Assembly: GCA_000004985.1 (NCBI GenBank) | Contig: GG738864.1 | Length of the DNA: 64,000 nucleotides | Direction: 5' to 3' (one strand) | From: Naegleria gruberi | Taxonomy: Eukaryota | Shown here: positions 2,752-60,028 of the stretch, piece by piece | How the letters are laid out: the number at the start of each line of letters is the position of its first letter | Numbering within the stretch: position 1 is the first letter of the stretch | The notes under the pieces: model-generated | What the model was told of the DNA's origin: nothing | Databases searched by the model: none | What the model saw: only the letters and a program-made list of their open reading frames with translations | Translations under genes and position numbers: made by a program

Positions 2752-3489
2752 GATTGTTGTGAGGTTTTTTTTCTTTGAAAGGTTCTCTGACTATGTTATT
2801 CGAATCATTTATGGTGATGAATTGGTACGAAACGTTCATTTAGCTATTTGATGGTTGAGTAGAGTTAGTCTTTTGGGTTTGAATCAGCAATGAATACTAT
2901 TGGATTGTTTGTTTTACAAAAAATGGGTGTTTCACTTGAACCTAATTGACTTCTATTTATGGAAACAAATTGTGTTCAAAATGCAAACCTTGACTGAATC
3001 AGAAAAGATGCAACTGCGTGTCTGTTTGAAATAATTTGGACAATTCAGCATAAAATACTATAACAGATCATACAACCTTACAATACTGCTAATTCGGTAT
3101 TTTAACGTGGTCAACTTGCACATTTTGCATTCTTGAAATTTACACTTGACATTTCGTAGAGTAACACTTCAATCAAAGAGTTGATAAGATGATAGATTAC
3201 ATTGTTACTTGTTAAAATATTTATGTTCTGAATATAGCTCTCAAGCCTCACTACACATTTTCTTCTCGTTGTATAAATTTTTATCTCTTTTATTGTACCC
3301 AAACTACATGTATTTGGAATGCTTATTTGATAGTTAATATTTTAGCAAGAGTTTATTTGCAACAAGTCATCTAATTGGATTAAATGAAAAGTGTGGACTA
3401 ACTTACTTATATCAATATTGACCATTGGATGACTAATATTTTATGCAATATACATTGTATTTGGTATTTGTTGCGGAGAAAAATCAAAA

Positions 3490-3607
3490 GACTACAGCAC
3501 CACAGGTTCCCAAGTTGTCTCCAACCTCAGTACTGATGTGGCTCGACGATACTTAACTTCTCAAATCGGACGGGATGAGGTGCATGAATCGTGATATGGC
3601 CGTAGCC
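3490..3607 (-). rRNA. 5S ribosomal RNA gene, copy 1 (118 nt), followed on its own strand by a T-run Pol III terminator.
   Basis: The reverse complement reads GGCTACGGCCATATCACG...GAGAAGTTAAGC...GGTGCTGTAGTC, which is canonical 5S architecture with helix I pairing GGCUACGGC to GCUGUAGUC. It is 97% identical to the copy at 18438-18555. Confidence 0.85.
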
Positions 3608-3799: not shown

Positions 3800-4169
3800 T
3801 TAACCACCCCTCAATCTCAAAACTAAATGCACAGTTGCATCCTTTTGAAGATTGTAATCACCAATAGTTCTTCCATCTTCCAATTGCTTACCGGCATAAA
3901 TCAATCGTTGTTGATCTGAAGGAATACCTTCCTTATCAAATATCTTTTGTTTCATATTCTTCAACAGTATCATTCGATTCCATTTCAATAGTGATTGTCT
4001 TTCCAGTTAAGGTTTTTACAAAAAGTTGCATTCCTCCTCTTAATCTTTGTTGATCTGGTGAAATTCCTTCCTTATCTTGTACTTTTCTTTTCACATTTTC
4101 AATTGAATCATTAGATTCAACCTCCAAAGTGATAGTTCTTCCAGTGAGTGTCTTGACAAATAATTGCAT
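3800..4169 (-). pseudogene. Decayed polyubiquitin-like gene. The first unit is [43 protein letters not shown] followed directly by RGG, so residues 43-73 are deleted in frame. The second unit is [24 protein letters not shown], then a +1 frame shift in a GAAGAA run, then [52 protein letters not shown].
   Basis: The two overlapping ORFs 3936-4169 and 3800-3988 together reconstruct a ubiquitin dimer only if one nucleotide is skipped. The first repeat has an internal deletion between the two RL dipeptides. Sequence is diverged from canonical ubiquitin (V/L/S substitutions). Confidence 0.5.
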
Positions 4170-4648
4170 TATGTTTGTTGTCTTGTTTTTCTTATTGTTT
4201 TTCTTGAATTCAAAACATATCCTTGCTTTTTATACTAAGTTTTGAGATGTATGTATTTTTAGAAGTAGTTCTTCTGCAAAGAAATTCTTTAAATGAACCG
4301 ATCGATTTTGTTTCTGGACACAAATTTGGTTCATGTTTTGTAATTATGTGCTATAGCTGTTCATACAATAATCAATTTTAACTTGTTGTTCGAATGAGTT
4401 TAATGCAATTTGACTCTTAATGATTTTGAATTTAAAAGGTGATTATTGGAAAAATACTAGCAAAATGGTTTGAGTTTAGCTGTTCATTACTAAAAACAAT
4501 GTTAACTTTTATGAAAAGATATTATATTAATATACCGTAGCCATTTATCCTTAATATAATGAATAATAATAAATTTGTTGAAAAATATCTTATTAATTTT
4601 ATTTTTATAAAAATAAAGGAATATAAGTAAAGATATTGTTGTTTGTCT

Positions 4649-4734
4649 TTCAATTGTTAATTTAGACGGGAAGCCTGCCAGGAATATGGCGACCATCCCG
4701 CTACAGTCTTTGACTGAATGAACAGTGAAGGCAA
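4649..4734. other. 5S-linked conserved element, copy 1 (core GACGGGAAGCCTGCCAGGAATATGGCGACCATCCCGCTACAGTCTTTGACTGAATGAACAGTGAAGGCAA, preceded by TTCAATTGTTAATTTA). Function unknown; candidate small RNA gene or cis-element.
   Basis: About 90% identical to the reverse complement of 18854-18943, while the sequence around both copies does not align. Contains the CAGTCTTTGACTG hairpin and a CGGGA...TCCCG pairing. Confidence 0.6.
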
Positions 4735-6412
4735 GAGTTCTGGACGAATCTTGTTGTGTTCAAATAACAGGTTGTTGAAGAATTTGATAAGGTTGACCAA
4801 CCTTCTATTTATTGAAAACCGACAAGTTAAAATTGCTTGATGCAAGTTTTGGTTTGATTTTTTCTGAATCAATTCTAAATTGAAACTTCATCTATTTCAA
4901 ACAAATTATTTTATTTACAATTTACTGAATTATTTACAAGTTAATTTACATCTTTTTCGATTTGGTAATCTTATTTGTGGTGGTTGATTGTTTAGCTCTC
5001 TTTTCAATTGAATTTTTCGAAGATCTTTTCACTGAAATTTGTTTACCATTTAAATTTGCGTGATGATAATCAATATTATGACGTCAATCTTTTAGATAAA
5101 TCAACTAGTTTAGATCTTGTTAGCTGGCATTTTGTTTTGTTGTAGATATATCATCATCCGATACCAGTTGATCTATTTATTTCCATGAAGATTTCCACTA
5201 ATTTTGTGATTCCGATTTTAGTGGATTTTCCACTCATCACAAGAAGTTTGAATTTTTCTATTAATATTTTGATGAAGGAAATTTAATGAAAATCAACAAA
5301 CAAAAGAAAATAACAACAATTAGAAAATGGTCTCAACAAGAAGAAATATGTATAATTCCTCCAATAACACTTCACAATTTAATTCCGAAATTTCTCTGGA
5401 TAACATTGTTGGTGGTACAAGAAGAAGAAATTTAATTGATTACAAAACATTGAATTCTATTGGAAGTGAATCAAGTAAAACTTCCAAATCTCAATCACAT
5501 AATACTTTAGAAATGAGAAACAAACAATTCAAACTGTGGTGAACTCCATTTAACTCAAAATTTTGTAAACCTAGGCAATCATTGTAAATAAACCCAAATG
5601 TAAATATTCAATAATGCACACAGTTGAGTTTTTTGACCCATTTTCTACGTTGAACTTCTGTTCAGTACACGTCCAACATAACTTTCAATGTTAATTATGT
5701 CAATGGTGTGTTTGCTCCATGTTCAACTATCTCAAAGAATTCAAATCATAAAAAAACAAACAACGACCATAATTCACTTTTCAAAAACCATGCATCTAGA
5801 AAGGTAAAAAAGGTTTGTTCGATTCATACTCTTTGCTTTCTTCATACTTACCTTGAAGGACATTTCAGTGATCATGCAGACTGAAATGTGAATCTGGAAA
5901 CTCTCCTCCTTGCACTCAGAGGATGAGAAGCCAGAATTTGGTCAATAATCAAAGTGGTTGTTGCCCTCCTTCTCAATTTTTTCCTGTGAGGATTCATCTG
6001 GTATGATTTCTCGCTCTGTTAAATAATAGAAATTTTGTGTGTGGGAATTTTGCTGCACCGAAGAATCTATTACCCTATAATTGTATCAAATTCCAAAAGC
6101 TCAAGATTTTCTAAATCAAATTGCAGCCATTCATTATCTTAAATTGTGAAACATGAATCAGTTCACCCTTGTTTCCCTCTCAATCTTATTAAAATATGAA
6201 ATATCAATGGTACAAGATTATTAAACCATAATATCCTCGTGCGGAGCGTGCAACATCAATTTATCCCAAGTCCGCTAAATGGCATATCAAAGCGTGCGCG
6301 GAAATTTGCTCTTCCAATCATTAATTGATTAAATTTCACTTAAAATTCGAGTTCAGTTTATAAACTCAATTTTAAAAACAAAAAAATACAATCATACAAA
6401 ATCCTATCAACC

Positions 6413-7231
6413 ATGTCTGCCACTACCACTGTTTCATCTTACTATTCATCTGTTTTTGTTGCTGGAGCCACCGGAGTTACTGGAATGCATGTTGCTAAGG
6501 CGCTCCTTAATCATCAATCTGCAAAACAAGTTTCAATTTTGGTTAGAGAGGGAAGTGAGGAGAAGGCAACTGAATTGGTCAATTCTGGAGCAAAGGTTGT
6601 TAAGGGAGATGTTTTGAATATGAGCGAGGAAGAGTTGACCAAAGCTTTGGAATCTGTTGAGGTTGTTGTCAGTGTTATTCAAGGGCATGATGATAAAACA
6701 ATGTTTGATGGTCAATTGAAATTGTTGAATGCTGCCAAGAAGGCTGGAGTTAAAAAATTCCTTCCATCTAGCTTTGGTTTCAATTACAATTTAGTCAACT
6801 ATGGAGATTCATTGTTTATGGATACCAAGAAGAAGTTTGTAGTGGAATTGGAAAAGAGTGGGTTGGAATATGTTCAATTACATGTTGGTGCCTTTGCTCA
6901 TTATGCTTCTTCTCCATCATTTGTAATGAAGTATGATAAGGATTCGAATACTGTTTCTTTATCTGGTGATTTTGATGTGAAATTTGGTATTACTACTTCA
7001 CAAGATATTGGAAAGTTTGCTGCAGAAGCTGCTTTGAGAAGAGACATTACCAAACACAATGTCACTGTCAGAGATGATTATTTGAGCGTTAGAGAAATTG
7101 CTCAATTAGTTTATGGATCTGATGTTAAACTTAATTTGGTGCAAACAACTGAGGAGTTGAAGAAGAGCATTAATGAAAGATCAACAGCTCTTGACAAATA
7201 CTCCACAAGATTGGATGAGAATTGCTTTTGA
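6413..7231 (+). CDS. NmrA-like / atypical short-chain dehydrogenase NAD(P)-binding protein.
   Basis: N-terminal Rossmann motif VAGATGVTG, and the overall NmrA/isoflavone-reductase-like pattern (KVVKGD, LLNAAKKAGVKKFLPSSFG). Confidence 0.7.
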   Translation: MSATTTVSSYYSSVFVAGATGVTGMHVAKALLNHQSAKQVSILVREGSEEKATELVNSGAKVVKGDVLNMSEEELTKALESVEVVVSVIQGHDDKTMFDGQLKLLNAAKKAGVKKFLPSSFGFNYNLVNYGDSLFMDTKKKFVVELEKSGLEYVQLHVGAFAHYASSPSFVMKYDKDSNTVSLSGDFDVKFGITTSQDIGKFAAEAALRRDITKHNVTVRDDYLSVREIAQLVYGSDVKLNLVQTTEELKKSINERSTALDKYSTRLDENCF

Positions 7232-11989: not shown

Positions 11990-12475
11990 CTAAGTGGTTG
12001 TTCATTACCGCCACATTATTATGATTGATGATTCGTGGTTTATTTTGAATAATTGTTCTTTAATTTCAAAACAATGGTTTAATGTGATCAAGGATCGTTC
12101 AAAACTTGTTATTCAATTTAAAAAAAATTAACAGAAAAAAGAGTTGAATTATTAATGAAAAGTCAATTCGTGCATAGTATTGTAAATGTTAAGTTTTCTT
12201 TTGGGTTGCTTAACTCTTCAGATAAACTTAAATTCATAAGTGAAATGAAACAATTAACATCACTTGATATTTCTGACAATGAAATTGGTGTAGAAGGAGC
12301 CAAACTCATAAGTGGAATGAAATCATTAATATCACTTAGTATTGGTGATAATCAAATTGGTGTAGAAGGATCCAAATACATAAGTGAAATGAAACAATTA
12401 ACATCACTTAATATATATTACAATGAAATTGGTGTGGAAGGAGCCAAACTCATAAGTGAAATGAAACATTAAGAA
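11990..12475 (+). pseudogene. Fragment or pseudogene of an F-box/LRR gene, paralogous to the gene at 58760-60028. It has the F-box remnant DDSWFILNNCSLISKQWFNVIKDRSKLVIQFKK followed by a stop, then three or four LRR units (ORF 12155-12472).
   Basis: Near-identical peptide strings to the N-terminus and repeats of the 422-aa F-box/LRR protein (SWFILNNCSLISKQFFNVIKERSKLVIQFK; MKSQF..SIVN.KF; LTSLDIS.NEIG.EGAK.ISEMKQL). An in-frame stop separates the F-box from the LRRs, and the array is truncated. Confidence 0.5.
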
Positions 12476-16024: not shown

Positions 16025-16698
16025 ATTTACCACAGACAACACTCTCACAATTCTCCCATCACACAACAAATCTAAAACTTCACCAACAACCAACACACCA
16101 AATTGTTAATAACTTGTGTACAGTACACTTCTAGGCCCCATCACTACAATTGATGATCACCTCTAGTTTCCAAACAAATAAAACAAAAAACAATTATTTA
16201 AATATTAATTTAATTATCATTCTCTTGTTGATTCTAAATTCCATGAGTTACTAATGAAGAACAAGTAACACTTTGAATATCAGAAGTAGTACTTATTTCA
16301 TCCTAGCTAGTCAAATATTGAATATTCATTATATTCTAATGAAGAATTTGGCAAGTTGTTTTCAATTGCAAAGGAAGATGTTGCACCATGCAATATTTGG
16401 TGTTTTTCATCAACAATTTTAGGTCATGGTTTCAATTTGGAACTACCAAGCCGGTCAATGTCAGATGTCCTGAACAAAAAAAAACATCATCTCTGTAATT
16501 TCCTTCAGTCATCATCACCCTCCTTCAGTGGTCAATCATCACATTATTCTGCAGTCACTCCTATTGATACAACAATATTCAATATTAAAAAAACATCTCC
16601 ACAGCATCCTCGTTTGTCATTTCCTCAAACTAAACCAAACTATTCAATACAACTCCCAACACTTTGTCAATAAGAATAAAAATTTCTAGAATTTGGAA

Positions 16699-18282
16699 AT
16701 GGGTAACCAAGCAACTTCTGCCACTACAGGTTTCGACTTATCAACCTCAAACAGACGTTCAAGGAACTTTTCTGCAGAACAAAATTTGAAAAATGTACAA
16801 AATGAACAAATTCAATCAACTCTCATTAATTGTTTTGCATTAGGTGATGATATGATTTATTACTTGTGGAAGTTTTATGATTTGGATCATAATAATGAAT
16901 TGGATTTGACAGAAATGAGAACTTTTCTAACAGAATTGATTCATACACTTCATGATGTTTGTCTGAGGAGTGAGCTACTTGCATACGAAACTGGTAAAAA
17001 GAGAGACTTGAGTCAATCAGGACAGTCCACTCAGGCAACAACAACTACATCGACAGCAGCTAGTACTGGAGGAGCTACTTCAACTTCAACAACAAATAGT
17101 TCAACAATAACCAACGAAACAGATTCGAAACAGCTCGATAAGAAGAAATCTTCTCGTTTTGCAATTTTTAAAAAGAAGAATAGAATGTCAACAGATTTCA
17201 ACGAAAAGAAAGCATCAACACCTCTCTGGAGAAGATCTAGAAATCTCTCCGATGAAGATAGTATGAAACGAAGATCAGTAGCTGTCATTCCAGGTGCTGG
17301 GATAGGCAACCATCACAACTTTGAACAAATGATTACTGGAAATACAGAACAAGACGATATTAAAAGGAGGTGGAAAGCAATTAGAGAACATATGGAAGGT
17401 AATATTGGTGATATTATTAAGAAGGTTGATAAGGATCAAAATGGAACTATCAACTATCAGGAATTTCTTGAATTTATGAAAACATATGATATCAAGGATA
17501 TGCTCAATAATATTGAACCATCAATGGTTTCTCCAAATTTACTCGATGGAAAACTAATGGGACTATTCAGTGAAGGACTCGCTGATGATAATGTTTCGGA
17601 TGTTTCCTCTCCTAGATCCATAACTACGGAAAATCCAACTTCTCCTCAAACGAAGGAAGGAAGAAGAAAATCAGCAATTTTCCAAGTACTTTCTCATACT
17701 CCGAGCGAATCATCTCTTCCATCTCTTGACTTACCTTCCAATAAGAAACCATTGAATAAGGGTGATTTATTGAATACTGTAATTTTTTCTAATGGACAGG
17801 AGACTCTGGATTTCCTAGCTCAATACAAGGAATCTATTGATAGAGTGGAATTGAATGCAGCATTGAGAAGAGCAATTGTAGATAATAACCCATCTAAAAC
17901 TAGGGCAATTCTCAAATATGGAGCTGCCGTTTGTCAATCATTCAAGGATGAAAATCAAGAAGAAAATTCAGAAGGATTTGATATGCTTACCACTTCACTC
18001 TTGAAAGCACTTGCATCATATTCACCATGTATGGACGGAGGAGAAATTGAAAAGTTACAATTAATTATTCGATTACTAGTTTCTAAAGGATGGTTTGGAA
18101 ATCATAATACAGATGAAAATTCAAGTCAATTCAAACAATTGTCCCCTGACATTATCTATGAATCTATGGTTTCGCATAATGATTCAATGTCCATGTATGA
18201 AGACGAGTTAAGGGATGCTCTGGGCGAGACTAAATCTTTTGAAGAGATTGAATCAGAATATTCTAGTCAACTCGAGGACTAA
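16699..18282 (+). CDS. EF-hand calcium-binding protein, probably N-myristoylated (MGNQATS), about 527 aa with S/T-rich linkers.
   Basis: EF-hand loops DLDHNNELDLTE and DKDQNGTINYQE, and an N-terminal MGxxxT motif. The family is not identified. Confidence 0.5.
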   Translation: MGNQATSATTGFDLSTSNRRSRNFSAEQNLKNVQNEQIQSTLINCFALGDDMIYYLWKFYDLDHNNELDLTEMRTFLTELIHTLHDVCLRSELLAYETGKKRDLSQSGQSTQATTTTSTAASTGGATSTSTTNSSTITNETDSKQLDKKKSSRFAIFKKKNRMSTDFNEKKASTPLWRRSRNLSDEDSMKRRSVAVIPGAGIGNHHNFEQMITGNTEQDDIKRRWKAIREHMEGNIGDIIKKVDKDQNGTINYQEFLEFMKTYDIKDMLNNIEPSMVSPNLLDGKLMGLFSEGLADDNVSDVSSPRSITTENPTSPQTKEGRRKSAIFQVLSHTPSESSLPSLDLPSNKKPLNKGDLLNTVIFSNGQETLDFLAQYKESIDRVELNAALRRAIVDNNPSKTRAILKYGAAVCQSFKDENQEENSEGFDMLTTSLLKALASYSPCMDGGEIEKLQLIIRLLVSKGWFGNHNTDENSSQFKQLSPDIIYESMVSHNDSMSMYEDELRDALGETKSFEEIESEYSSQLED

Positions 18283-18437
18283 CAATGTACAAAAATTAAC
18301 AAATATTTCAAACAAACTTTATTTCATTATTAAAAATCTTTCATTACAAAATTCAATTTTACTAGTATTGTCAAATTCGATATTTAAGAGCACGAATTTC
18401 TTGTTAGATTGATATTTCATATTTTAATACAACTGAT

Positions 18438-18555
18438 GGCTACGGCCATATCACGATGAATGCACCTCATCCCGTCCGATTTGAGAAGTTAAGCATCGTC
18501 GAGCCACATCAGTACTGAGGTTGGAGACAACTTGGGAACCTGTGGTGCTGTAGTC
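18438..18555 (+). rRNA. 5S ribosomal RNA gene, copy 2 (118 nt), followed by a TTTTT terminator.
   Basis: GGCTACGGCCATATCACGATGAATGCACC...GGTGCTGTAGTC. Differs at 3 positions from copy 1. Confidence 0.85.
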
Positions 18556-18853
18556 TTTTTATCTGTTAGAGCATGATTCTTCTGGAATATGAAGAACAAT
18601 ATTAAAACATTGACTTGATATTTATCCTTATTATCTCTTCCTTTGTGAAAAATCATTTCTTGACTTACTGTCTAAAGATTTTGTTAATCGTAAACTATTT
18701 CAATGTTTGAAGACTCAAATTCGAAATTTTATCGTTTATTGATCAACCACAAGTTTCTCTTTCTAAATAGATTAAAATAAAAGGTGATAAATAGATGGTC
18801 AGGTAGCAAGCGTTTCTAAATAATAATTACTGAACCAACAATCAATAGATTAG

Positions 18854-18943
18854 TTGCCTTCACTGTTCATACAGTCAAAGACTGTAGCGGGACTGTCGCT
18901 ATATTCCTGGCAGGCTTCCCGTCCAAAATTAATAATTGAAATG
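18854..18943. other. 5S-linked conserved element, copy 2 (reverse-complement orientation relative to copy 1).
   Basis: TTGCCTTCACTGTTCATACAGTCAAAGACTGTAGCGGGACTGTCGCTATATTCCTGGCAGGCTTCCCGTCCAAAATTAATAATTGAAA is the reverse complement of 4649-4734 with about 8 substitutions. Confidence 0.6.
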
Positions 18944-19078
18944 GTAATGTGACAATAACAACCACCAAGATAACACACTTTCTGGTTAATCATGGATTGT
19001 CTGTTTATGCTTATTTCTTAAAATAAGTGAAACAAGTAAATATATCAATAATATGAACATTTATCTTTCCATTAACCT

Positions 19079-20345
19079 TTTCTTCCACTTGTATTGTAGT
19101 TTTCCAGAAACCATGACATAAATTTTTCAACACCAATCATTTTTCCATCCATGTTGATCGATTAAAATCCATCTAATCAATCTATTTTTTGATCAATCTA
19201 TCAAACAATCGATCATGATTCATTAACAATTTCAATCAGCTAATTATCAAAAGATTGTTGTTTGATTTCTTGTGATGTTTCAAAATAAAGCACTTCAAAA
19301 CACAAAAAGTTGTTTTTCCAAATTGCTTAAAGTCATGTGCCAAGCCAATCCTCCGATGTGGCATTTGAAAATAAATATGAATTTCTTATAATCCTTTCAG
19401 AGCTCAATGACTGAAAGTTGCCTCAACACTTTTCCAAGAATATGCCAAGTGCTCACTCTTGATTTTTGAAATTTGGGATATGGATATTGAAATATTACAT
19501 AAATGTTTGAGTAAATATTGAACTCCCCAAAGTCAGAGTGTTGGTTCTTGATTAAATAATTGCTTACACAAGTTTGGACGTTGTTGCTCCTGAACATGTG
19601 GTTTTGTTCAAAGAACACCTTATCAAGTTTGCTTTCATTCTCGCCCTTTATCATTAATTAAGGCACTCAATAATTCAAATCTTTTTTCAAGTGTTGTATT
19701 TTATCATGTCAAGTACTTGGGAAACTCGTTTGATGTAGTGGAAGATCCACTAGTAATTCAGTAAGTAACAAATCTATCTAATTTGTAACCCAGCATTTCT
19801 GAAAATGTCGAATTCATTGTAAAGAAATTAAACCACATTCAAACTTAATGAATTGTTCCTGATGTCATCCAGCTTGATATGGAATTAAGTAATACCAATA
19901 AGGTGATTTTCAAGGCACTCTATACTGACATCCAACCAAGGGTTGGTTCAAAATGAAAAAGGAGCAATTTGGAGAAGATTTTTCGAACCTTTGTGAAACA
20001 ATTCAAATAAGGGAGAAGGAAATCTGTGTCTCTAAAAAAATAATTGAAAAAACCAAAAAAAAGGCAAGAAGAAAATCAAACCTGAACTGGAAGAACAAAA
20101 GAAATCATCAAAATCAAAGTCTCAAGCTCAGTTCAATGAGGATTTTGAGATATAATGAAGAACATTGATAGATCGATCGATTGATCGATCAATTAATTGA
20201 TAAAATTCTATGTTTCATCCATTCAATCGATCATTTTCCATCTCGATCAATCATCGATCGGTAAAAAAATTCCATCGAACAATTTATGTCATGGTTTCTC
20301 GAAAACTACAATATCTCTTTTTCATAGTTCTTCCACAAAAGTTCT
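19079..20345. repeat. Composite repeat region. The outer segments 19079-19130 and 20283-20316 are inverted copies sharing the core AATTTATGTCATGGTTTCT[C/G]GAAAACTACAATA (32/33). The inner ATCGAT-rich tracts 19140-19200 and 20215-20265 are direct copies. The 0.9 kb between them carries two copies of an AAGGCACTC motif. It could be a foldback/MITE-like remnant or a structural element.
   Basis: Repeat similarity and the palindromic GATCGATCGATTGATCGATC tracts are seen directly by eye. I found no transposase or reverse-transcriptase ORF. Confidence 0.4.
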
Positions 20346-20920
20346 GAAGGTCTGAATTAGTAGGAACCTATTTTACAGTTAATGAAGGAACCTGTAAAGT
20401 TGTTATTTCAACTTAGTTTCTTCAACAAGGTCTTCTGCTGTTATTACAAGAAAGGATTGTTAGTTAAGTAAAAAGGGGGAGAAACACAGAAGCTAAACAA
20501 AAAAGAGATGAACAGTTCCTGTTGTATTCACATAATGCAGTGATGGATCATTGTTAACATGATTAATTAACTCCGCTCTTTGTACTAATTCAATTCTAAC
20601 ATGCCTTATTTCATAATCAAGTCAATGACCTCTTTCAACAATTACAATACAGTGAAAAGGTTGTGAATGGCAATATATGAAAAATGAGATTGGCAGACCA
20701 TTTTTAACAGATCATATTTCAAAAAGGAAATACTGTAATAGATTGGAAAGGTCAACTCGAAACATGTCAGTGAGAAACATTGTAAAGTATACTATTCATC
20801 CATTAGTTTAATAAGCTAATTACCCGAACGTTTTCCAACAGACCAAAGGTGCTGCACTTGCAAACTAAAGCAATATTCAAAAACCTCATGTTGCAACCTT
20901 TCTTCTAAACACTCAAAAAA

Positions 20921-22573
20921 ATGAAATCAGCAACCGGCATTCTTTGCTTCATCTGCTTATTAACACTGCTCATTCTCAAAGCAGACTACACTCTCCAACA
21001 ATTCACATGTTTCGGCTTGGACCCAACTGACCTTAGCGTCTGTGGAGGAAACGGTTTTTGCACAGCTCAAGACACATGTGATTGTCAAGATCTTTCATAT
21101 GGTGGCTATATTCACTCTAACATCAATGGTACTCTCAATAGATTAGTCAAAATTGCAAATGCTCCAAGAAATGAACATCTCGTCCTCCAATTAGACGCCA
21201 ATCTCATCTTGTTTAGTGATACAGCAGGTTTACCTGATTGGGCATCCGGTACCTATTCTCCATTGAATTCAGATCGTTACATGAGGATTGATAATAGCAC
21301 TGGTGCTTTCACACTTCACAAACTTGATGGAACTGTCTATGCTACAGTCTCTTCTGGATGTAATGGTGGAATTGGTCCATTCAGATTGGTTGTGAGATCA
21401 GATAGAAATTTGGCAATATACGATTCTATTGGAAAGATCTGCTGGATTATTGACAAGTATCCACACATTGGTTCAGTCATGTATCATGGAGCCAAATGTG
21501 ATGTTCCAATTTGCTTTGATAAGAATGCAACTGAGGTATGCTCTGGAAGAGGTTATTGTAATGTTCCACATAATTGTACTTGTATGGAAGGTGCCTTTGG
21601 TTATGATTGTAGAAATTTCACATGCTTTGGACTTGCTATCAATGATACCTCTGTTTGTTCTGGACATGGTCAATGCAATAATTTGAATAATTGCACATGT
21701 AATGATGGTTATTTTGGATCAAAGTGTCAAGAATTCAACTGTAATGGAATTCATTATAAGGAATCAAGTGTTTGCAGTGGTAAAGGAGTTTGTTCTAGTC
21801 CTAATGTTTGTAATTGCACACAAGGTTATAGTGGAGCATATTGTCAAGAATATTATTGTGATGGAACTCTTTACAATGACCAAAATGTTTGTTCTGGACA
21901 TGGCAAATGTAATGCTCCAGATAGTTGCTCATGTTCTGCTGGTTATTCTGGTGCCACATGTCTAGATTATACATGTTATGGAATTCATTATGCAGATCAA
22001 ACAGTTTGTTCAGGAAGAGGTAAATGTATTGGTCCAGATGGTTGCACCTGTCCAACTGATTTCTCTGGAACATCATGTCAAGATTATTACTGTAATGGAA
22101 TTCATTACAAGGAATCAAATGTTTGTAATGGACGAGGTGTCTGCTCAGCACCAACTATTTGCAATTGCACACAAGGATACACTGGTACATATTGTCAAGA
22201 TTTCAACTGTAATGGAACTTATTACAGTGATGCAAAGGTTTGCTCTGGAAATGGTAAATGTAATGCTCCAGACAGTTGCTCATGTTCTGCTGGTTTCTCT
22301 GGAGCTACATGTCAAGATTTCTATTGTAATGGAATTCTTTCCAATGATGAAAAAGTTTGTTCAGGAAATGGAAAATGTGCATCTCCAAATAATTGTGTTT
22401 GCTCTCCTCAATTTAGAGGTGTCAGTTGTGAAACTAAAGTACCTTCTACTGTTGCTTCCTTGAGTGGAAATGTTATTGGAAAGGTCAATAGCTCAATTTC
22501 CATTAAGAAGGTTAGCACTCTTCAAATGATATTCATCTTGGCATGTGTAATGATTTGTGCCATCTTGTTTTAA
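20921..22573 (+). CDS. Type-I membrane glycoprotein with signal peptide, a bulb-type (B-) lectin domain, about 12 tenascin-type EGF repeats and a C-terminal TM segment.
   Basis: B-lectin motifs LQLDANLILF and VRSDRNLAIYD; repeated CSGxGxCxxPxxCxCxxGxxGxxC units; a hydrophobic C-terminus. Confidence 0.7.
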   Translation: MKSATGILCFICLLTLLILKADYTLQQFTCFGLDPTDLSVCGGNGFCTAQDTCDCQDLSYGGYIHSNINGTLNRLVKIANAPRNEHLVLQLDANLILFSDTAGLPDWASGTYSPLNSDRYMRIDNSTGAFTLHKLDGTVYATVSSGCNGGIGPFRLVVRSDRNLAIYDSIGKICWIIDKYPHIGSVMYHGAKCDVPICFDKNATEVCSGRGYCNVPHNCTCMEGAFGYDCRNFTCFGLAINDTSVCSGHGQCNNLNNCTCNDGYFGSKCQEFNCNGIHYKESSVCSGKGVCSSPNVCNCTQGYSGAYCQEYYCDGTLYNDQNVCSGHGKCNAPDSCSCSAGYSGATCLDYTCYGIHYADQTVCSGRGKCIGPDGCTCPTDFSGTSCQDYYCNGIHYKESNVCNGRGVCSAPTICNCTQGYTGTYCQDFNCNGTYYSDAKVCSGNGKCNAPDSCSCSAGFSGATCQDFYCNGILSNDEKVCSGNGKCASPNNCVCSPQFRGVSCETKVPSTVASLSGNVIGKVNSSISIKKVSTLQMIFILACVMICAILF

Positions 22574-22690
22574 CAAATTGAAAACCCTTTTCACATTCAA
22601 TATAAATTCAATTTTTTGTAAAATCAATAAATTGCAAGTTTAATTGAAAAAAGAATTTCTAATTTCCTCACTGTATGATACTAAATCTTA

Positions 22691-23064
22691 TTAAAAACTA
22701 GTCTTTTGTTGCTTGTATTTCAAACCTTCAGTTCCATCCAATAAAACATAAACTCCATCATCTGTCAAATTAAATGTAAAAACTTTTTCAAATCCAACTT
22801 CAGGTAAAACTAATTTCAATTCAATTTTATGAGCACGAGCAATGGAAGGGAGAGGAAGATCCAAAACAAGTTCCTTATCAACTTCTCCTGTGGAATCTTC
22901 AAAAACAAGCTCAAATTCACTTGAGGTTGAGTTGAGTGATTTGATGAAAATTTTCTAATAATTAGGATTTAAATTATTTGATGAATTTTGATGTGATTAC
23001 ATACTGCTGGATCTTCTTCACTGGCTGGGAGTTCCTTGACAAAGAGGTGGAGTTGTGTGGACAT
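22691..23064 (-). CDS. Small two-exon gene (about 108 aa) missing from the ORF track: MSTQLHLFVKELPASEEDPA, then a 50-nt intron GTATGT...TTATTAG at 22954-23003, then KIFIKSLNSTSSEFELVFEDSTGEVDKELVLDLPLPSIARAHKIELKLVLPEVGFEKVFTFNLTDDGVYVLLDGTEGLKYKQQKTSF.
   Basis: Clean ATG, a canonical short intron matching the local intron class, and an uninterrupted second exon ending in TAA. I recognise no family. Confidence 0.4.
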
Positions 23065-23381
23065 TTTTTTTTGTTTATTAATAAAAGATAATTAAGACAG
23101 TTGAAGGAATCTTTTTATGGATTGACATGTGTTAAAATTGGATGATCAATAAATATTTTAAATGTTTTGTAATGTTGGGCGCTCTGGTTATGTCATCTAC
23201 AGTTGCTTTACAATGAGGGTTTCATTACCATAGTACCTATCTGAAACTCCAATTCTAGTATGAATAATCAACAAGATTAAAGTACACTATATTATTCAAC
23301 AAGATTAGTGCACACTATTATTGGTATTTTACAATTTTATTTACATGATATTCGATTCGTTTACATTCGTTTATAATAAAT

Positions 23382-23648
23382 CTATTCTCTCTTAACCCAA
23401 TAGGTATGAGAAATTGGAGCAAAATCAACCTGAGTCACAATATCCTTATTTTCACCAGGTCTAGCACAATACTTTGATTCAAAAGCAAGAGTTTCAGGTG
23501 TGGCACGAGCTTCAACAAATGATTTACCTTGTTCAGCTTCTTGCCATTTCAAGTTGGCAACTGAACCAGCAGAGAGGATGGCCATTGCTGATAACCAAAC
23601 GTATGGCTTGTAGAAGAAGTATTGGAAACCAATTTTATGATAGGTCAT
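23382..23648 (-). CDS. Small (88 aa) single-pass membrane protein, function unknown.
   Basis: ORF with one hydrophobic helix (YVWLSAMAILSAGSV). No family recognised; it could be spurious. Confidence 0.3.
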   Translation of the reverse strand: MTYHKIGFQYFFYKPYVWLSAMAILSAGSVANLKWQEAEQGKSFVEARATPETLAFESKYCARPGENKDIVTQVDFAPISHTYWVKRE

Positions 23649-24109
23649 TTTGGATTTTAATGATCAATTCGAAAGAGATCGAGATAATGTCGTTTTTTTT
23701 TAGAGTGGTGAAATAATGGAAAGTTGGCGAAACCAAAGAATTTAAAGTGATGGTTGGCAGGGAAACCGAAGCAAATTGAAGGAGAAAATATTTCCAAACG
23801 TCGACATATTTTAAAAACTACATGTAAGGAAGTCAGTTACAACAAATTGACATTTTCGACGTTGTAATGTCATTTTTCCAAATTAGCACCTGTCAGCGAA
23901 ATGTCATACAAAAACTGTAGATAACATTAATGTATGTGTTATTTTCAATTCTACAATCAATTGAAGATTTCATCCCTTGATCAAAAAAACAACTCAATTT
24001 CATTTTCAACAATCTCTATTGAGGATTTCAATATCCTAATGAAATATATTCTTCGATCTTTCCTCTTCTTCTTGAAAGATTGCATGAATAGTTCAATTAT
24101 TTACCATAG

Positions 24110-25408
24110 TTGACTTTACAATTCATGAACAGAAATATTACTCCACTCAAAAAAATGAATCAAGATCAAAATGTACTGCTATATGATAATTTTCCCTTCC
24201 ACCGAAAAATATTAAACACCACCATCACAACATGCCATTCTCGGATCATGATTAACAATTCACTTTATATGTTCCAACTCATTAAAGGTGAAAATATGAT
24301 CAAGGTTTCTAGGGTGTCTTTTCTGGGTGAGGGTTTGGAGTATAGAATTTACGAATATCAGAATGTGAGAATATACAATGAGGATGATGCTGATGAAAAT
24401 TCACTTGTAGTTTTAACATTTATTGAAATTGGAGAATTGAATGGTTATTTCTACATGTTTTCCGAATCTGAAGGAAGTGGCAGGAATTTAGAACAGGTTC
24501 ATAGGTTGAAAATTATTGAAGAGAATAATGCTTCTTCGATTCAAGTTGAGAGAATTTATAAGAGTTTTGAAACTTCGTATGTGAGAATTCTGAGTCCATT
24601 ATTAGCAGATAGAGAGAGGAATTGTTTTTACTGGTTTGGTGGATATAGGATTAGAAAATCAACCAGTTTGAAGGATTGTATCAAGTTTAATGTGGAAACG
24701 TGTGAATTTGAATTTTTGACAAATTTTCAAATGGGATTTGTTTTACATTCTCAATCTTCATTGTTTTGGAAGAATAGATATGTCATTGTATTTGGAGGTT
24801 GGATCACTTCTTGTTTTACAACAGCCAATATTTATGCATTTGATGTTGAGAATAGAAATTGGTATTCAATTTATTGTATTGATGACACAGATGAGGAGGT
24901 AATACCAAAAATTTTGCCTAGATATAATTCTGGAATGGTATTGGTTTCTAATAGGTGGGCCAGTAAATTTAATGCAACTATTCCATCAAATGATGATATG
25001 GATACATTATTCATTTATGGAGGACATATTGATTATATGGATATAACACGAGATACACATGAGGTATTGTTATTTCACTTGGACGAGTCGCTATTCCAAC
25101 TTGGAGAAGTGATTACAGAAACTCATATACCATTTAGTTTGACCAATTATTGTAAAGATTATTGGGAAAAGAAATTGAGCGAAACTGAATTTAATTTATT
25201 TAAGGATAATTTCAAGATTCTTCCTACCACTAATGTAAGCACCATTTATAACTTTAAATGTCATACTGGGAAGGAGAGATTGTACATTCTCAATGGATAC
25301 GACAAAACTAGTATATCAAAATTAGATTTGTGTGATATGAGATCTTTGTTTAATTCGAATTTATTGAAATTTTCACATTATTGGGATGTTCAATTTTCAT
25401 TTTTATAA
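24110..25408 (+). CDS. Kelch-repeat (beta-propeller) protein, 432 aa.
   Basis: Kelch-like blades with a Gly-Gly doublet and aromatic residues (YVIVFGGW..., LFIYGGH..., RNWYSIY). Confidence 0.5.
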   Translation: MTLQFMNRNITPLKKMNQDQNVLLYDNFPFHRKILNTTITTCHSRIMINNSLYMFQLIKGENMIKVSRVSFLGEGLEYRIYEYQNVRIYNEDDADENSLVVLTFIEIGELNGYFYMFSESEGSGRNLEQVHRLKIIEENNASSIQVERIYKSFETSYVRILSPLLADRERNCFYWFGGYRIRKSTSLKDCIKFNVETCEFEFLTNFQMGFVLHSQSSLFWKNRYVIVFGGWITSCFTTANIYAFDVENRNWYSIYCIDDTDEEVIPKILPRYNSGMVLVSNRWASKFNATIPSNDDMDTLFIYGGHIDYMDITRDTHEVLLFHLDESLFQLGEVITETHIPFSLTNYCKDYWEKKLSETEFNLFKDNFKILPTTNVSTIYNFKCHTGKERLYILNGYDKTSISKLDLCDMRSLFNSNLLKFSHYWDVQFSFL

Positions 25409-25490
25409 TATTCTGGTATTTATTTCAATGAAATTACTAAATAAATTGGAATCTTAATTTAAATTCCACAAATTCCAATTCAACTTTAGA

Positions 25491-43097: not shown

Positions 43098-44303
43098 CCA
43101 AAGGTGTTACAATACTCGAATAATACAACAGGATCGGGTGTTGTTGGAGGCTATTTTTGTTTCAGCTTTACTTGTGTTTTTCAATAATGAAAACTGTTGG
43201 AGTAGTGTGTTACTAGTTGTTCTATGTGACAAATTCCAAATAAAAGCAGCTACAACTTTCTTATTTGTTGTAATTGCTAGCTTTCACAAATATATTTATG
43301 AAATATTGGAATGTTGAAGAACAAGAGGAATATGATGATGATAATGATGAAAGAGGTTTACTCTAATTTTTTTAAAAAGATAGGTGGAACTAGGCGGAGG
43401 GAAAGAGAATCCCATTTAGAATCTTTGTCAGCTATTGGCATTTCAGGGTAGTCCATCTGTCGGCATCTTACAAAATCCTCAATAAATCTTTTTGATTCTC
43501 CCAATTGGTTGTTAGCCAACTGTTGTTTAAGGAAAATGAGTTAATAAGTAATGTAGTTGTAGCCGGTATTGAGGTCTTCAAGTCAGTAGATTATGTTCAA
43601 AGTTGTGAATGTTTTATAAACATAGAATTGGAGAACTTTTAATGGTTTTGAAGTATACTATACATCTCAAAAAGAACCCGATCAAATTAGATGCAGAATA
43701 TCGAGCAATAATGTCAAATAGTGGCGCCATTGCACAGATTCTATCTAATGGTCATCCAAACATTCGCCAACTATCCTCTTTAGAATTCATTTTCGTTGAG
43801 TTGTATTGCATTGATATTTGAAACAGTTCAATCTTGGGTGTTTGAAACAGAAAATACACAGAATTGTGTGCAAAGGACGGAGTGCTTGATCTGTGGGTGT
43901 TGGTAGCCATACGAATGAAATTTGAAGGTTTCCAACTTGGTCAGAAAATTTCGTATGCATTTTGGGAAACATTTGCTAACAATAAAGTTGTCAGCCAAAT
44001 ATTTTTTAAAGTAATGTTTCATTAAAGATGGGTTCCCAAATCACAATAGAGATTAATTTCATCGATCGAGATTTTGAATAGTAGTTTGATTAGTGCCAGG
44101 AAGAAACTCTGTAATGGAAATACTCCAGAATAATCACGAAAATTGGTCAGGAATCTCGGTGTAAATTGTAAACAAAGTTTACAATGAGATATCTCATAGG
44201 GTATTACATTCAATCTGATTCTAACTGTTTGTAATTCAATCAAACATATTATTGCAATTTCTAGAAAAATGAATCTTTTTCGTTTACGGCATTAATACAT
44301 GTA

Positions 44304-57262: not shown

Positions 57263-58759
57263 ATTAAAAACACTACAACTACTAATTGATTAAATAAATT
57301 ATAACACAAGTCAAATTAAAATAGTAGACTTGGTACAATTGTGGTGGTGGTTTTTTGGTTTGACTTGCTGAAATAATATTTTGACAATTTTTGTTCTTCC
57401 TTTGTTTTTGTGATGACTTAGTTCTTCAAAGGAAGTAGAAGTGCACAAGAGCTTGCTTGAAAAACACAGAAACCCGTCAAAATGGAAATGGCAAGTAAAA
57501 GTGCTGAAAGTTCTTTTTAGTTGGTAAATTAACGGAACATTAAAAATCAATAAGTTGATGAAAGCATCATCCATTCAACATTTTCGTCACGGATTGTGTT
57601 CATAACATTTATATTGGTAATTATGGAAAATAGTCACATGTGTTACCTTCTCTTCTTTTTAAATCTACTTACTTTTAGAACAAGAACTGAAATCCGAACA
57701 CTTATTGATATTAAATAAATACTACACAACTACTACTACTGGTGTGTGATGATAGAGTTCTCAGAGTTGGTTATGTTGCTGCTTTTTGTTAATCTCAAAG
57801 AGCCATAGATTTTAATCTCCTTTTTGGACAAAACTGATTTGGCGGTTTTAAGGTGATCTGTTTGTTGAGGAAACTAGCTAGTTTTTGCACGCGCTTGTTG
57901 ATGATGAAAGGTGTTGGTTCTATTGCTAAAACATTCACAGTGTTGTGCTTTAGTCGATAAAGAGAGACCTTCTATTTTGACGGAATCAGACTATAAGGCT
58001 GTAAACCGATCGTATACCAATCCTTAATAATATAAGTTATTCTTAATTGAATTTCTGTAATGTCGAAATGCGCCAATTTCCCAACTATGAAAGGGGTTTG
58101 TTCTAATTGATGTATTCTACAAGATTCTGTTGTCTTGAATATAGGTTATTTGTATTAACCAAGAAATCGTCTTACCCTCTATGAAAATTTTGAAATCACT
58201 TTTCTCTATAAATAAAGAGCCAAATCCAACAAATTTCATATTATGATATCGTTAACTTAATGAATAATAATCATACGATATGTTTCTCTAATATCCAGTG
58301 TTGTTATTGAGATATGCTTTGTTGAGATTGTGAATTCACGTTCAGATAGTGAAATTTGCTTAAGGAATGAAATCAGTGCTATTGGCGCAAACAATTACCC
58401 CTACAATCAGCTTTGGGGGAATTCTGGAATACTTCTACTGATCTCAAAGATAAACGAGGATACAGAATCAAACAAGCACAGACTGTTACCAAATAGCTTG
58501 GGATCTCGAACCTGGGAACTTGTTTTCATTAACCTCAAACGTTACTCAACGTAAACAATTCACAATCGGCAATTCAAGTATTACTTGTTTAGTATATATA
58601 TTCCTTTATTTTTTTGGAGAAAATGCTTAACCTGACCCAGATATTGGGAAGAGGAAGCTATTAAATCTTGAAGCCTTGTATTGATTTGAGCAACATGTTT
58701 GCTGACGTAAAAAAAGGGTGTGTTTATAAATTAGTAGAATGTTAACAGTTATTTTAAGT

Positions 58760-60028
58760 TTAATTAATAGATTTCATCTTTTGGTAATTAATATTAAGTG
58801 ATTTTAATTGTTTCATTTCACTTATTAATTTCACTCCTTCAATACCAATTCGATTGTAACATATATTAAGTGATTTTAATTGCTTCATTTCACTTATGAA
58901 TTTGGCTCCTTCATCTCCAATTAGATTGTAAGATATATCAAGTGATATTAATTGTTTCATTTCACATATTGATTTGGCGCCTTCATCACCAATTTGATTG
59001 TTATAAATACTAAGTGATCTCAATTGTTTCATTTCACTTATTGATTTGACTCCTTCATCACCAATTCGATTGTAACATATAGCAAGTGACGTTAATTGTT
59101 TCATTTCAAATATGGATTTTACTCCTTCACCACCAATTCTATTTCCACTAATATCAAGTGATATTAATTGTTTCATTTCACATATTGATTTCGCACCTTC
59201 ATCTCTAATTTCATTGTAAGATATATTAAGTGACGTTAATTGTTTCATTTCAATTATTGATTTGGCTCCTTCATCTCCAATTAGATTGTAAGATATATCA
59301 AGTGACATTAATTGTTTCATTTCACTTATTGATTTGGATCCTTCATCTCCAATTATATTGTTACAAAATGTAAGTGATGTTAATTGTTTCATTTCACTTA
59401 TTGATTTGGATCCTTCATCTCCAATTTGATTCTTAGATATATCAAGTAATATTAATTGTTTCATTTCACATATTGATTTGGCGCCTTCATCTCCAATTTG
59501 ATTGTTATTAATACTAAGTGATCTCAATTGTTTCATTTCACTTATAAATTTGGCTCCTTCATCTCCAATTTGAATTCCACGAATATCAAGTAATTTTAAT
59601 TGTTTCATTTGAGTTATGAATTTGGCTTGTTCTATAGTGTCAAGCGAGGTTCTATAAAATTTAAGATTAACAATACTATTCATAAATTGACTTTTCATGA
59701 ATAATTCAATTCTTGTTTCTGTAAATTTTTGTTTAAATTGAATAACAAGTTTTGAACGTTCCTTGATCACATTAAAGAATTGTTTTGAAATCAAGGAACA
59801 ATTATTCAAAATAAACCACGAATCATCGAGCATGCAAATTATTTCAAAACAAACATCATCTGAAAATATTTCTTGTCGTTTCAGTTTAACCTTTTTTGCT
59901 TTCTCTTCCATATTATTTTCCTCCGAATAATTAATTAAATGATCATGATTTGCCAAATCTTGTCTATTTCGTTTGCTCATTTTTTTTTGAATTAATCGTT
60001 GGAGTTGGTGTACTCCCTTAACACCCAA
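58760..60028 (-). CDS. F-box / leucine-rich-repeat protein (RNI-type 24-residue LRRs, about 13 units).
   Basis: F-box-like CFEIICMLDDSWFILNNCSLISKQFFNVIKERSKL, followed by tandem LxSLxISxNxIGDEGAKSIxEMKQL units (72-nt DNA repeats). Confidence 0.7.
   Translation of the reverse strand: MGVKGVHQLQRLIQKKMSKRNRQDLANHDHLINYSEENNMEEKAKKVKLKRQEIFSDDVCFEIICMLDDSWFILNNCSLISKQFFNVIKERSKLVIQFKQKFTETRIELFMKSQFMNSIVNLKFYRTSLDTIEQAKFITQMKQLKLLDIRGIQIGDEGAKFISEMKQLRSLSINNNQIGDEGAKSICEMKQLILLDISKNQIGDEGSKSISEMKQLTSLTFCNNIIGDEGSKSISEMKQLMSLDISYNLIGDEGAKSIIEMKQLTSLNISYNEIRDEGAKSICEMKQLISLDISGNRIGGEGVKSIFEMKQLTSLAICYNRIGDEGVKSISEMKQLRSLSIYNNQIGDEGAKSICEMKQLISLDISYNLIGDEGAKFISEMKQLKSLNICYNRIGIEGVKLISEMKQLKSLNINYQKMKSIN

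Follow-up and report, generated by a model that had tools for sequence, protein, structure and literature searches.

A GC-rich, foldable element beside two 5S rRNA genes of Naegleria gruberi, tentatively read as a small structured RNA gene

Two 5S rRNA genes lie in a 64,000-nt stretch of Naegleria gruberi DNA (contig GG738864.1; the whole stretch is called the window below), and each is accompanied by a copy of the same short element. This raises the question of what the element is, and why it has stayed alike in DNA that otherwise has not. A reading made from the letters alone (hereafter the sequence-only reading) had suggested a function, such as a small RNA gene or a pol III or pol II control module. 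Our analysis leads to a tentative answer, to which we give a probability of about 40%: the element may be an unclassified, lineage-specific gene for a small structured RNA of about 85-90 nt, inherited with 5S repeat units. Several other origins are weighed below, each next to the evidence that bears on it. The features concerned are listed in Table 1.

We compared the two copies with blastn (4648-4734 against 18941-18854). They were inverted relative to each other and identical at 81 of 88 positions (92%), with a 1-nt gap and an E value of 2e-25. The differences amount to six substitutions and one indel; the identity of about 90% given by the sequence-only reading stands, while its count of about eight substitutions does not. 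A repeat search of the window recovered the pair as inverted-repeat arms of 74 nt (4661-4734 and 18854-18927) that are 93% complementary. Both nhmmer and a covariance model, which scored copy 1 at 115.8 bits and copy 2 at 116.8 bits, found exactly two copies in the 64-kb window, and the 69-nt core gave no chance match in 100 shuffles. The similarity ends sharply on both sides, the surrounding DNA being essentially unalignable. Indeed, beyond the element the 3.6 kb and 2.6 kb of the two loci share only the 5S gene and a 38-nt piece of 5S-upstream sequence (blastn, tblastx). That the element is far better conserved than its surroundings, as had been claimed, is thus borne out.

Table 1. Features of the window discussed in the text, with coordinates, strand and supporting details.
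Feature	Coordinates	Strand	Details
5S rRNA gene #1	3489..3607	minus	Rfam RF00001, 98.6 bits; element 1040 nt away on its 5' side
Element copy 1	4648..4734	.	87 nt; on the minus strand, as 5S#1, the letters run TTGCCTTCACTG...AATTGAAA; blastn, covariance model
Weakly conserved flank, copy 1	4735..4815	minus	ATAAATAGA at 4804-4812, 69 nt before the core; TGAACACAACAA nearer the core
5S promoter relic	6125..6217	minus	Without 5S body; repeat search and blastn
ORF	6413-7231		100% identical to NCBI 'predicted protein [Naegleria gruberi]'
ORF	16693-18282		100% identical to N. gruberi EF-hand protein
5S rRNA gene #2	18438..18556	plus	Rfam RF00001, 105.4 bits; element 297 nt away on its 3' side
Weakly conserved flank, copy 2	18787..18853	plus	ATAAATAGA at 18787-18795, 58 nt before the core; also TGAACCAACAA
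Element copy 2	18854..18941	.	88 nt; on the plus strand, as 5S#2, the letters run TTGCCTTCACTG...AATTGAAA; blastn, covariance model

Each copy sits in an island of high G+C content, at 4645-4759 over copy 1 (maximum 0.53 versus 0.29-0.33 regionally) and at 18846-18932 over copy 2. The element has about 52% GC, and the base composition of the window is 29-38% GC. Outside long ORFs, 12 islands with at least 47% GC were present in the 64 kb, four of them corresponding to the 5S and tRNA genes and two to the element. In this composition the element resembles the tRNA and 5S genes, which speaks for an RNA gene. Islands outside long ORFs without an assigned feature were found at 5865-5974, 6229-6315, 22990-23064, 43393-43464 and 43875-43944. 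The island at 22975-23066 has a T9 run at its end, is predicted to be unstructured (z +0.8) and has no Rfam match.

According to the sequence-only reading, the flanks do not align except for a stretch GACAA[A/T]AACAA. The near-unalignability was confirmed, but the flank with that stretch was not significantly similar between the copies, and it is the other flank that shows weak similarity. For the 120-nt flanks before the core on the 5S strand, the local alignment score was 15.5 versus a shuffle mean of 10.0 (sd 1.7), and 21 of 2000 shuffles reached this score (p ~0.01). The similarity between the 120 nt after the core on the same strand was not significant against shuffles. A TATA-like box lies 58 and 69 nt from the core, and this variable spacing counts against a confident promoter assignment. 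Past the core, the tail on the 5S strand is rich in A and has repeats of a CAA-like kind (GACAAACAACAA and GACAATAACAACC).

A pol III control module was among the options of the sequence-only reading, but the element has neither a T-run terminator nor a credible A or B box. No run of four or more T occurs within 40 nt of the core on either strand, and both 5S genes have one. A standard pol III gene is therefore unlikely, and the missing terminator suggests that the candidate would be transcribed by pol II or processed from a longer transcript rather than made by pol III. For a tRNA, a tRNA-derived SINE or a pol III type 2 gene we looked for a cloverleaf, an A box (TRGCNNAGTGG), a B box (GGTTCGANNCC) and a T-run terminator. 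ARAGORN found no tRNA at either copy, and a B box was absent from both. By eye, TAGCGGGATGG is like an A box at 9 of 11 positions in copy 1 and at fewer in copy 2. We also considered descent from 5S itself, suspected from the common TCCCGTCC, and rejected it: the local scores of 8.5-9 hardly differ from the shuffle means of 7.8-8.0 (equaled by 103-169 of 500 shuffles), and the 5S covariance model had no match at either copy of the element.

Rfam agrees with the sequence-only reading on the two 5S genes (Table 1). They correspond to scaffold_20:227488-227604 (5S#1) and scaffold_20:242441-242557 (5S#2) among the 279 N. gruberi 5S genes listed in Table S1 (PMC3369914), and they are 14,949 nt apart. 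The window is thus nuclear DNA and most likely equals scaffold_20:224001-288000, with the element at the inferred positions 228648-228734 (copy 1) and 242854-242941 (copy 2). The 5S-to-element spacings, given before as about 1.04 and 0.3 kb, measured 1040 and 297 nt. That the element lies on the strand opposite its 5S gene could not be upheld, as the statement hinges on an arbitrarily chosen orientation of the element. The relative orientation of element and 5S gene is identical at both loci; it is the side that differs, the element being 5' of 5S#1 and 3' of 5S#2.

A further piece of 5S-like DNA, missed by the sequence-only reading, lies near copy 1 and appears as the promoter relic in Table 1. 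Its distal part resembles the upstream region of 5S#2 (32/38, blastn), and its proximal part resembles the upstream region and first bases of 5S#1 (25/28), terminating in ATGGCT. No 5S body was found there with nhmmer, and an RNA starting at the relic is predicted to be unstructured (z +0.6). The relic is on the same strand as 5S#1, at 2526 nt start-to-start, with the element in between. On the minus strand, the order at locus 1 is 5S relic, element, 5S#1, all co-oriented, and the order at locus 2 is 5S, element. The three common pieces (5S, element and 5S-upstream piece) are all inverted between the loci. They are not collinear, with 5S and element at one locus versus relic, element and 5S at the other, in agreement with the earlier view that this is not a simple segmental duplication.

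The positions in Table S1 (PMC3369914) give 28 of 162 adjacent 5S gaps at 1-4 kb, versus about 3 expected, with a mode of 2-3 kb. The dispersal of the 279 genes is therefore non-random, the short gaps marking loose pairs or triplets and not true tandem arrays. Since the spacing between the relic and 5S#1 is typical, we read locus 1 as a usual loose 5S pair in which one member has decayed, with the element between the two. Under the small RNA gene reading, the ancestral repeat unit would have been 5S - element - 5S, and purifying selection would have kept the element while the spacers decayed. The element is beside both of the two 5S loci examined in the window. In a genome of reportedly 41 Mb, the probability that a site picked at random has one of the 279 5S genes no farther than 1.1 kb away is about 1.6%. 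Both loci may, however, stem from one duplication, and the association with 5S would then count as one event, not two.

Of note, a ubiquitin-like tandem occupies 3800-4169 (minus strand), between the element and 5S#1. The first unit carries an internal deletion (46 aa, MQLF...DQQRLRGG), and an apparent frameshift interrupts the second; this tandem is probably a pseudogene. A linkage of 5S and ubiquitin genes has been reported in Tetrahymena.

The inversion of all three common pieces would also be expected if the element were without function, a neutral remnant of an old inverted duplication in which gene conversion between loci 14 kb apart kept one short patch alike. Concerted evolution is known for 5S families, and the structure test described below was non-significant, as this explanation would have it. 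We nevertheless consider it quite unlikely. The pieces are not collinear between the loci, conversion requires prior homology and yet unalignable DNA separates the element from 5S, and both the GC-richness and the stable fold would be left unexplained.

Both the hairpin CAGTC-TTT-GACTG and the CGGGA/TCCCG helix that the sequence-only reading had picked out are present. On the 5S strand, RNAalifold predicted a consensus fold of 26 pairs, composed of a closing stem (UUCA.UGUU/AAYA..UGAA), a hairpin (CAGUC-AAA-GACUG) and a long interrupted hairpin (GCGGGA...UCCCGU). Compared with dinucleotide shuffles, the 85-nt form of copy 1 had a z score of -2.8 on the minus strand and -3.1 on the plus strand, and its 74-nt core reached -4.1 on the plus strand. 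In copy 2, the 5S strand scored -2.8 and the opposite one -2.2. Two control GC islands had z scores above 0. The stability of the fold is about equal on both strands of the element.

The differences between the copies are at unpaired positions of the consensus fold or change a G-C or A-U pair to G.U (two such changes on the 5S strand, one on the other). The sequence-only reading had proposed a check for compensatory substitutions; we ran it and found a double change in no predicted pair on either strand. We also threaded copy 2 on the minimum free energy (MFE) fold of copy 1 and compared it with 3000 mutants in which changes equal in number and type had been placed at random, so that the structure was not derived from both sequences. 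The fraction of mutants doing at least as well was 0.31 on the 5S strand and 0.67 on the other strand. Resting on six substitutions, this test has hardly any statistical power.

A sharp-edged, 92%-identical, GC-rich and foldable core in unalignable DNA points to selection on a functional unit or to independent insertion. Under the latter, the element would be what is left of some family of short repeats or mobile DNA (such as a MITE, SINE, solo-LTR fragment or retroposed RNA copy) that inserted or survived near pol III genes, and the likeness of the copies would reflect recent common origin, not selection. Mobile elements that target pol III genes include Ty1/Ty3 and the Dictyostelium TRE5, TRE3 and DGLT-A, and plants have Cassandra, a 5S-carrying TRIM. 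As with the pol III-targeting elements, we are dealing with repeated DNA within about 1 kb of pol III-transcribed genes. The sharpness of both edges and the A-rich, CAA-like tail past the core agree with such an origin, and the closing stem can be read as an imperfect terminal inverted repeat (TIR) of 9-10 nt. Furthermore, N. gruberi carries many unclassified repeats (PMC12344493), and copy 2 is inside 7.2 kb that N. lovaniensis and N. fowleri lack between the corresponding two genes.

Insertion by a mobile family is a possible origin, and we still find it doubtful. The sequence-only reading had named a match to a known transposon terminus among the signs of a passive hitchhiker; we found none, and the hallmarks of TIR, target-site duplication (TSD) and LTR are missing from both copies. 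A TSD flanks neither copy, and the TG...CA ends are lacking. Threaded by hand, a Helitron 3' end and an LTR primer-binding site (PBS) each failed on at least one defining feature or fitted one copy only: the Helitron CTRR end is not conserved, as only copy 1 has CTAA past the hairpin, and the PBS-like TGGTCGCCA is likewise confined to copy 1 and is mismatched to the two tRNAs of the window. Unlike Ty1/Ty3, TRE5/TRE3/DGLT-A and Cassandra, the element has no LTR or TIR ends, no TSD and no conserved PBS or PPT. Its distance from 5S and its side are not fixed, it has no coding capacity nearby (neither reverse transcriptase nor transposase was found in the window), it is absent at both tRNA genes of the window (tRNA-Lys and tRNA-Met), and it is not 5S-derived. 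Finally, the 64 kb hold two copies only. As no transposon hallmark is present, the balance tilts toward function.

If the element is functional as an RNA, it does not fall into a known class. With Rfam 15 at the gathering threshold, only the two 5S and two tRNA genes were detected in the whole window. Using 501-nt and 131-nt stretches around both copies at E<=10, we obtained unrelated matches only (12-19 bits), which differed between the copies. This was the Rfam check proposed by the sequence-only reading, and it puts the element outside every Rfam family, including at E<=10; the families covered comprise snRNAs, SL RNAs, snoRNAs, SRP, RNase P/MRP, Y and vault RNAs, ribozymes, riboswitches and the histone 3' stem-loop. 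The same scans agree with that reading in giving no match to U1, U2, U4, U5, U6, 7SL or spliced-leader (SL) RNA, and none to ribozyme families, including hammerhead and twister. An SL RNA should have a 5' exon that ends at a conserved GU donor within stem-loop I, and farther downstream an Sm site between stem-loops. It was also rejected by inspection of both strands of both copies, as the candidate GU sites (CA/GUGAAG and CU/GUAGCG, the slash marking the site) have no conserved Sm site downstream. For an Sm-class snRNA we looked for a conserved RAU(3-6)GR beside a 3' hairpin together with conserved functional 5' sequences. The Sm-like AAUUUUGG of copy 2 reads AAUUUAGA in copy 1, the same site carries the indel, and the sequence 5' of it is not conserved between the copies.

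Small nucleolar RNAs were rejected as well. The C/D class calls for boxes C (RUGAUGA) and D (CUGA) with a terminal stem, and RUGAUGA is absent from both strands. The H/ACA class calls for a hairpin with a pseudouridylation pocket and for an ACA/AGA box 3 nt from the 3' end, and the internal loops of the long hairpin (1-2 nt) are too small for such a pocket. An HDV-like ribozyme should have a nested P1-P2-P3-P1.1-P4 double pseudoknot, no spacer at J3/1 and a short J4/2 that holds the catalytic C. Threading by hand gave the right helix order, but P1 had 5 bp, J3/1 had 5 nt and J4/2 had 12 nt. Hammerhead, U1, U5 and U7 motifs, the K-turn, the tRNA cloverleaf and the TPP aptamer likewise failed by hand on at least one defining feature or fitted one copy only. 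Overall, no Sm site, C/D box, H/ACA box or A/B box is conserved between the copies.

A short protein-coding exon or pseudo-exon was also considered. On the 5S strand, the frame AFTVH[S/T]VKDCSG[M/T]VAIFLAGFPSK is open over the core in both copies, with two synonymous differences. Scanning metagenomes with the 20-mer GGGAAGCCTGCCAGGAATAT gave a bacterial isoleucyl-tRNA synthetase gene as the only match, over 21 nt, and in the same frame this identity yields IFLAGFP. The 21 consecutive bases (CATATTCCTGGCAGGCTTCCC) are common to the element and to JGI metagenome contigs L003:769-789 and L004:1996-2016. About one chance match is expected for a 20-mer in a collection of this kind, and we judge the identity to be such a match. 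Both copies have stop codons upstream, at a distance of 11-12 codons, and copy 2 also has one directly past the core; the copies have no start codon in common, and a six-frame peptide query had no match at E<=10 among 5.8 billion proteins, those of N. gruberi included. A coding origin is therefore hardly credible. The element had no match in viral, prokaryote, phage and plasmid collections. In the literature, we found no paper with its sequence and none on Naegleria small RNAs or 5S-linked elements.

We then turned to the related species. In 60 kb of N. fowleri and N. lovaniensis DNA (N. fowleri L001 and L008, N. lovaniensis L007 and two ENA contigs), which includes one 5S locus, nhmmer and the covariance model found no copy of the element. 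At that locus, in N. fowleri L001, the 5S gene (L001:10865-10983) also adjoins an NmrA-like gene, and no copy was present within +/-10 kb. Genes for HMG-box, EF-hand and 2'-5' RNA ligase proteins are adjacent in N. lovaniensis and N. fowleri. Between the EF-hand and 2'-5' RNA ligase genes lie 100-340 nt in these two species, versus 7.2 kb in N. gruberi (18283-25490), where this interval contains 5S#2, the element, a stretch of about 2 kb devoid of coding signal, and two genes, one EGF-repeat and one Kelch. At the loci reached, conservation of the element thus does not extend detectably to the fowleri/lovaniensis lineage, which fits a young lineage-specific RNA or repeat.

Some features of the neighboring DNA were recorded on the way. 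In N. fowleri, a near-perfect 22-bp hairpin (L001:11050-11115; -30.7 kcal/mol, z -7.1) lies 70-130 nt downstream of the 5S gene, and its sequence is unrelated to the element. In the N. fowleri NmrA-like gene (L001:9965-10831), which abuts 5S, the C-terminal half is turned around compared with the N. gruberi orthologue (tblastx, 10831-10601 corresponding to window 6944-7174); this is either a rearranged pseudogene or an assembly artefact. Within the window, 72-nt repeat arrays at 12021-12475 (plus strand) and 58712-59833 (minus strand) are about 80% identical and inverted, belong to two genes 46 kb apart and resemble leucine-rich-repeat coding units.

A function could also be exerted by the DNA itself. 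The element would then be a cis-acting part of the 5S repeat unit (a protein-binding module, an insulator or a promoter piece for a neighboring gene), conserved as DNA. Its orientation relative to 5S is the same at both loci, the upstream blocks ATAAATAGA and TGAAC.CAACAA are promoter-like, and the substitution pattern lends no statistical support to an RNA structure. N. gruberi reportedly has no TFIIIA, its 5S genes being served by an upstream TATA box (PMC3369914). Spacings of 297 and 1040 nt on differing sides are nonetheless hard to square with a 5S control module, and no B-box-like TFIIIC site is present. There is also no common downstream gene: copy 1 is followed by the ubiquitin-like pseudogene and copy 2 by the 2 kb mentioned above, and neither 4735-6130 nor 18942-20920 has a coding signal. 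Moreover, 88 nt of nested helices at 52% GC would be unusual for a binding site. Because of these nested helices and the GC-island signature, we favor an RNA over a DNA-binding site, and regard a cis-acting DNA element as unlikely.

The small RNA gene reading can be compared with two kinds of known system. In AT-rich archaea, GC-rich islands serve as a signal for finding RNA genes, and the class I RNAs of Dictyostelium are a lineage-specific example. Like the noncoding RNA genes found as GC islands in AT-rich genomes, the element is a compact island (0.53 versus about 0.31) with a stable fold and paired ends, is intergenic and lineage-restricted, and is in no database. Unlike for the Dictyostelium class I RNAs with their DUSE, no common upstream promoter element can be defined from its two copies. 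The second kind is the linkage of small RNA genes to 5S. SL RNA-5S repeats occur in Euglena, kinetoplastids, dinoflagellates and C. elegans, and U-snRNA-5S linkage occurs in some animals. The element resembles such 5S-linked small RNA genes in its length of about 90 nt, its gene-like conservation, its position 0.3-1 kb from 5S and its apparent past within one repeat unit. It differs from the SL RNA and U-snRNA repeats in having no splice-donor and Sm-site layout, no Rfam SL or snRNA match at E<=10 and no fixed 5S spacing.

The candidate RNA gene would be transcribed; as to the strand, we lean slightly to that of 5S. Several observations point against an RNA gene: both strands fold alike, no compensatory pair was found, and there are two copies only, none of them near tRNA genes.

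A bolder form of the small RNA gene reading seems improbable to us at present. In this form, the element would be an undescribed small RNA gene regularly accompanying the dispersed N. gruberi 5S genes, making a '5S + small RNA' unit in a heterolobosean. Naegleria belongs to Discoba, a group that also holds Euglenozoa. Such a unit would be a counterpart to the 5S/SL-RNA co-repeats of Euglenozoa, and co-amplifying a small RNA with 5S could then be an ancient habit in Discoba. Should the element be transcribed and present beside many of the 279 5S genes, a deep-branching eukaryote would have a new and abundant family of small RNAs. A further case of a gene co-amplified with 5S would be added as well, bearing on how dispersed 5S families spread. 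If the element is instead a repeat relic, it would only be a marker of how the 5S pairs of N. gruberi arise and decay.
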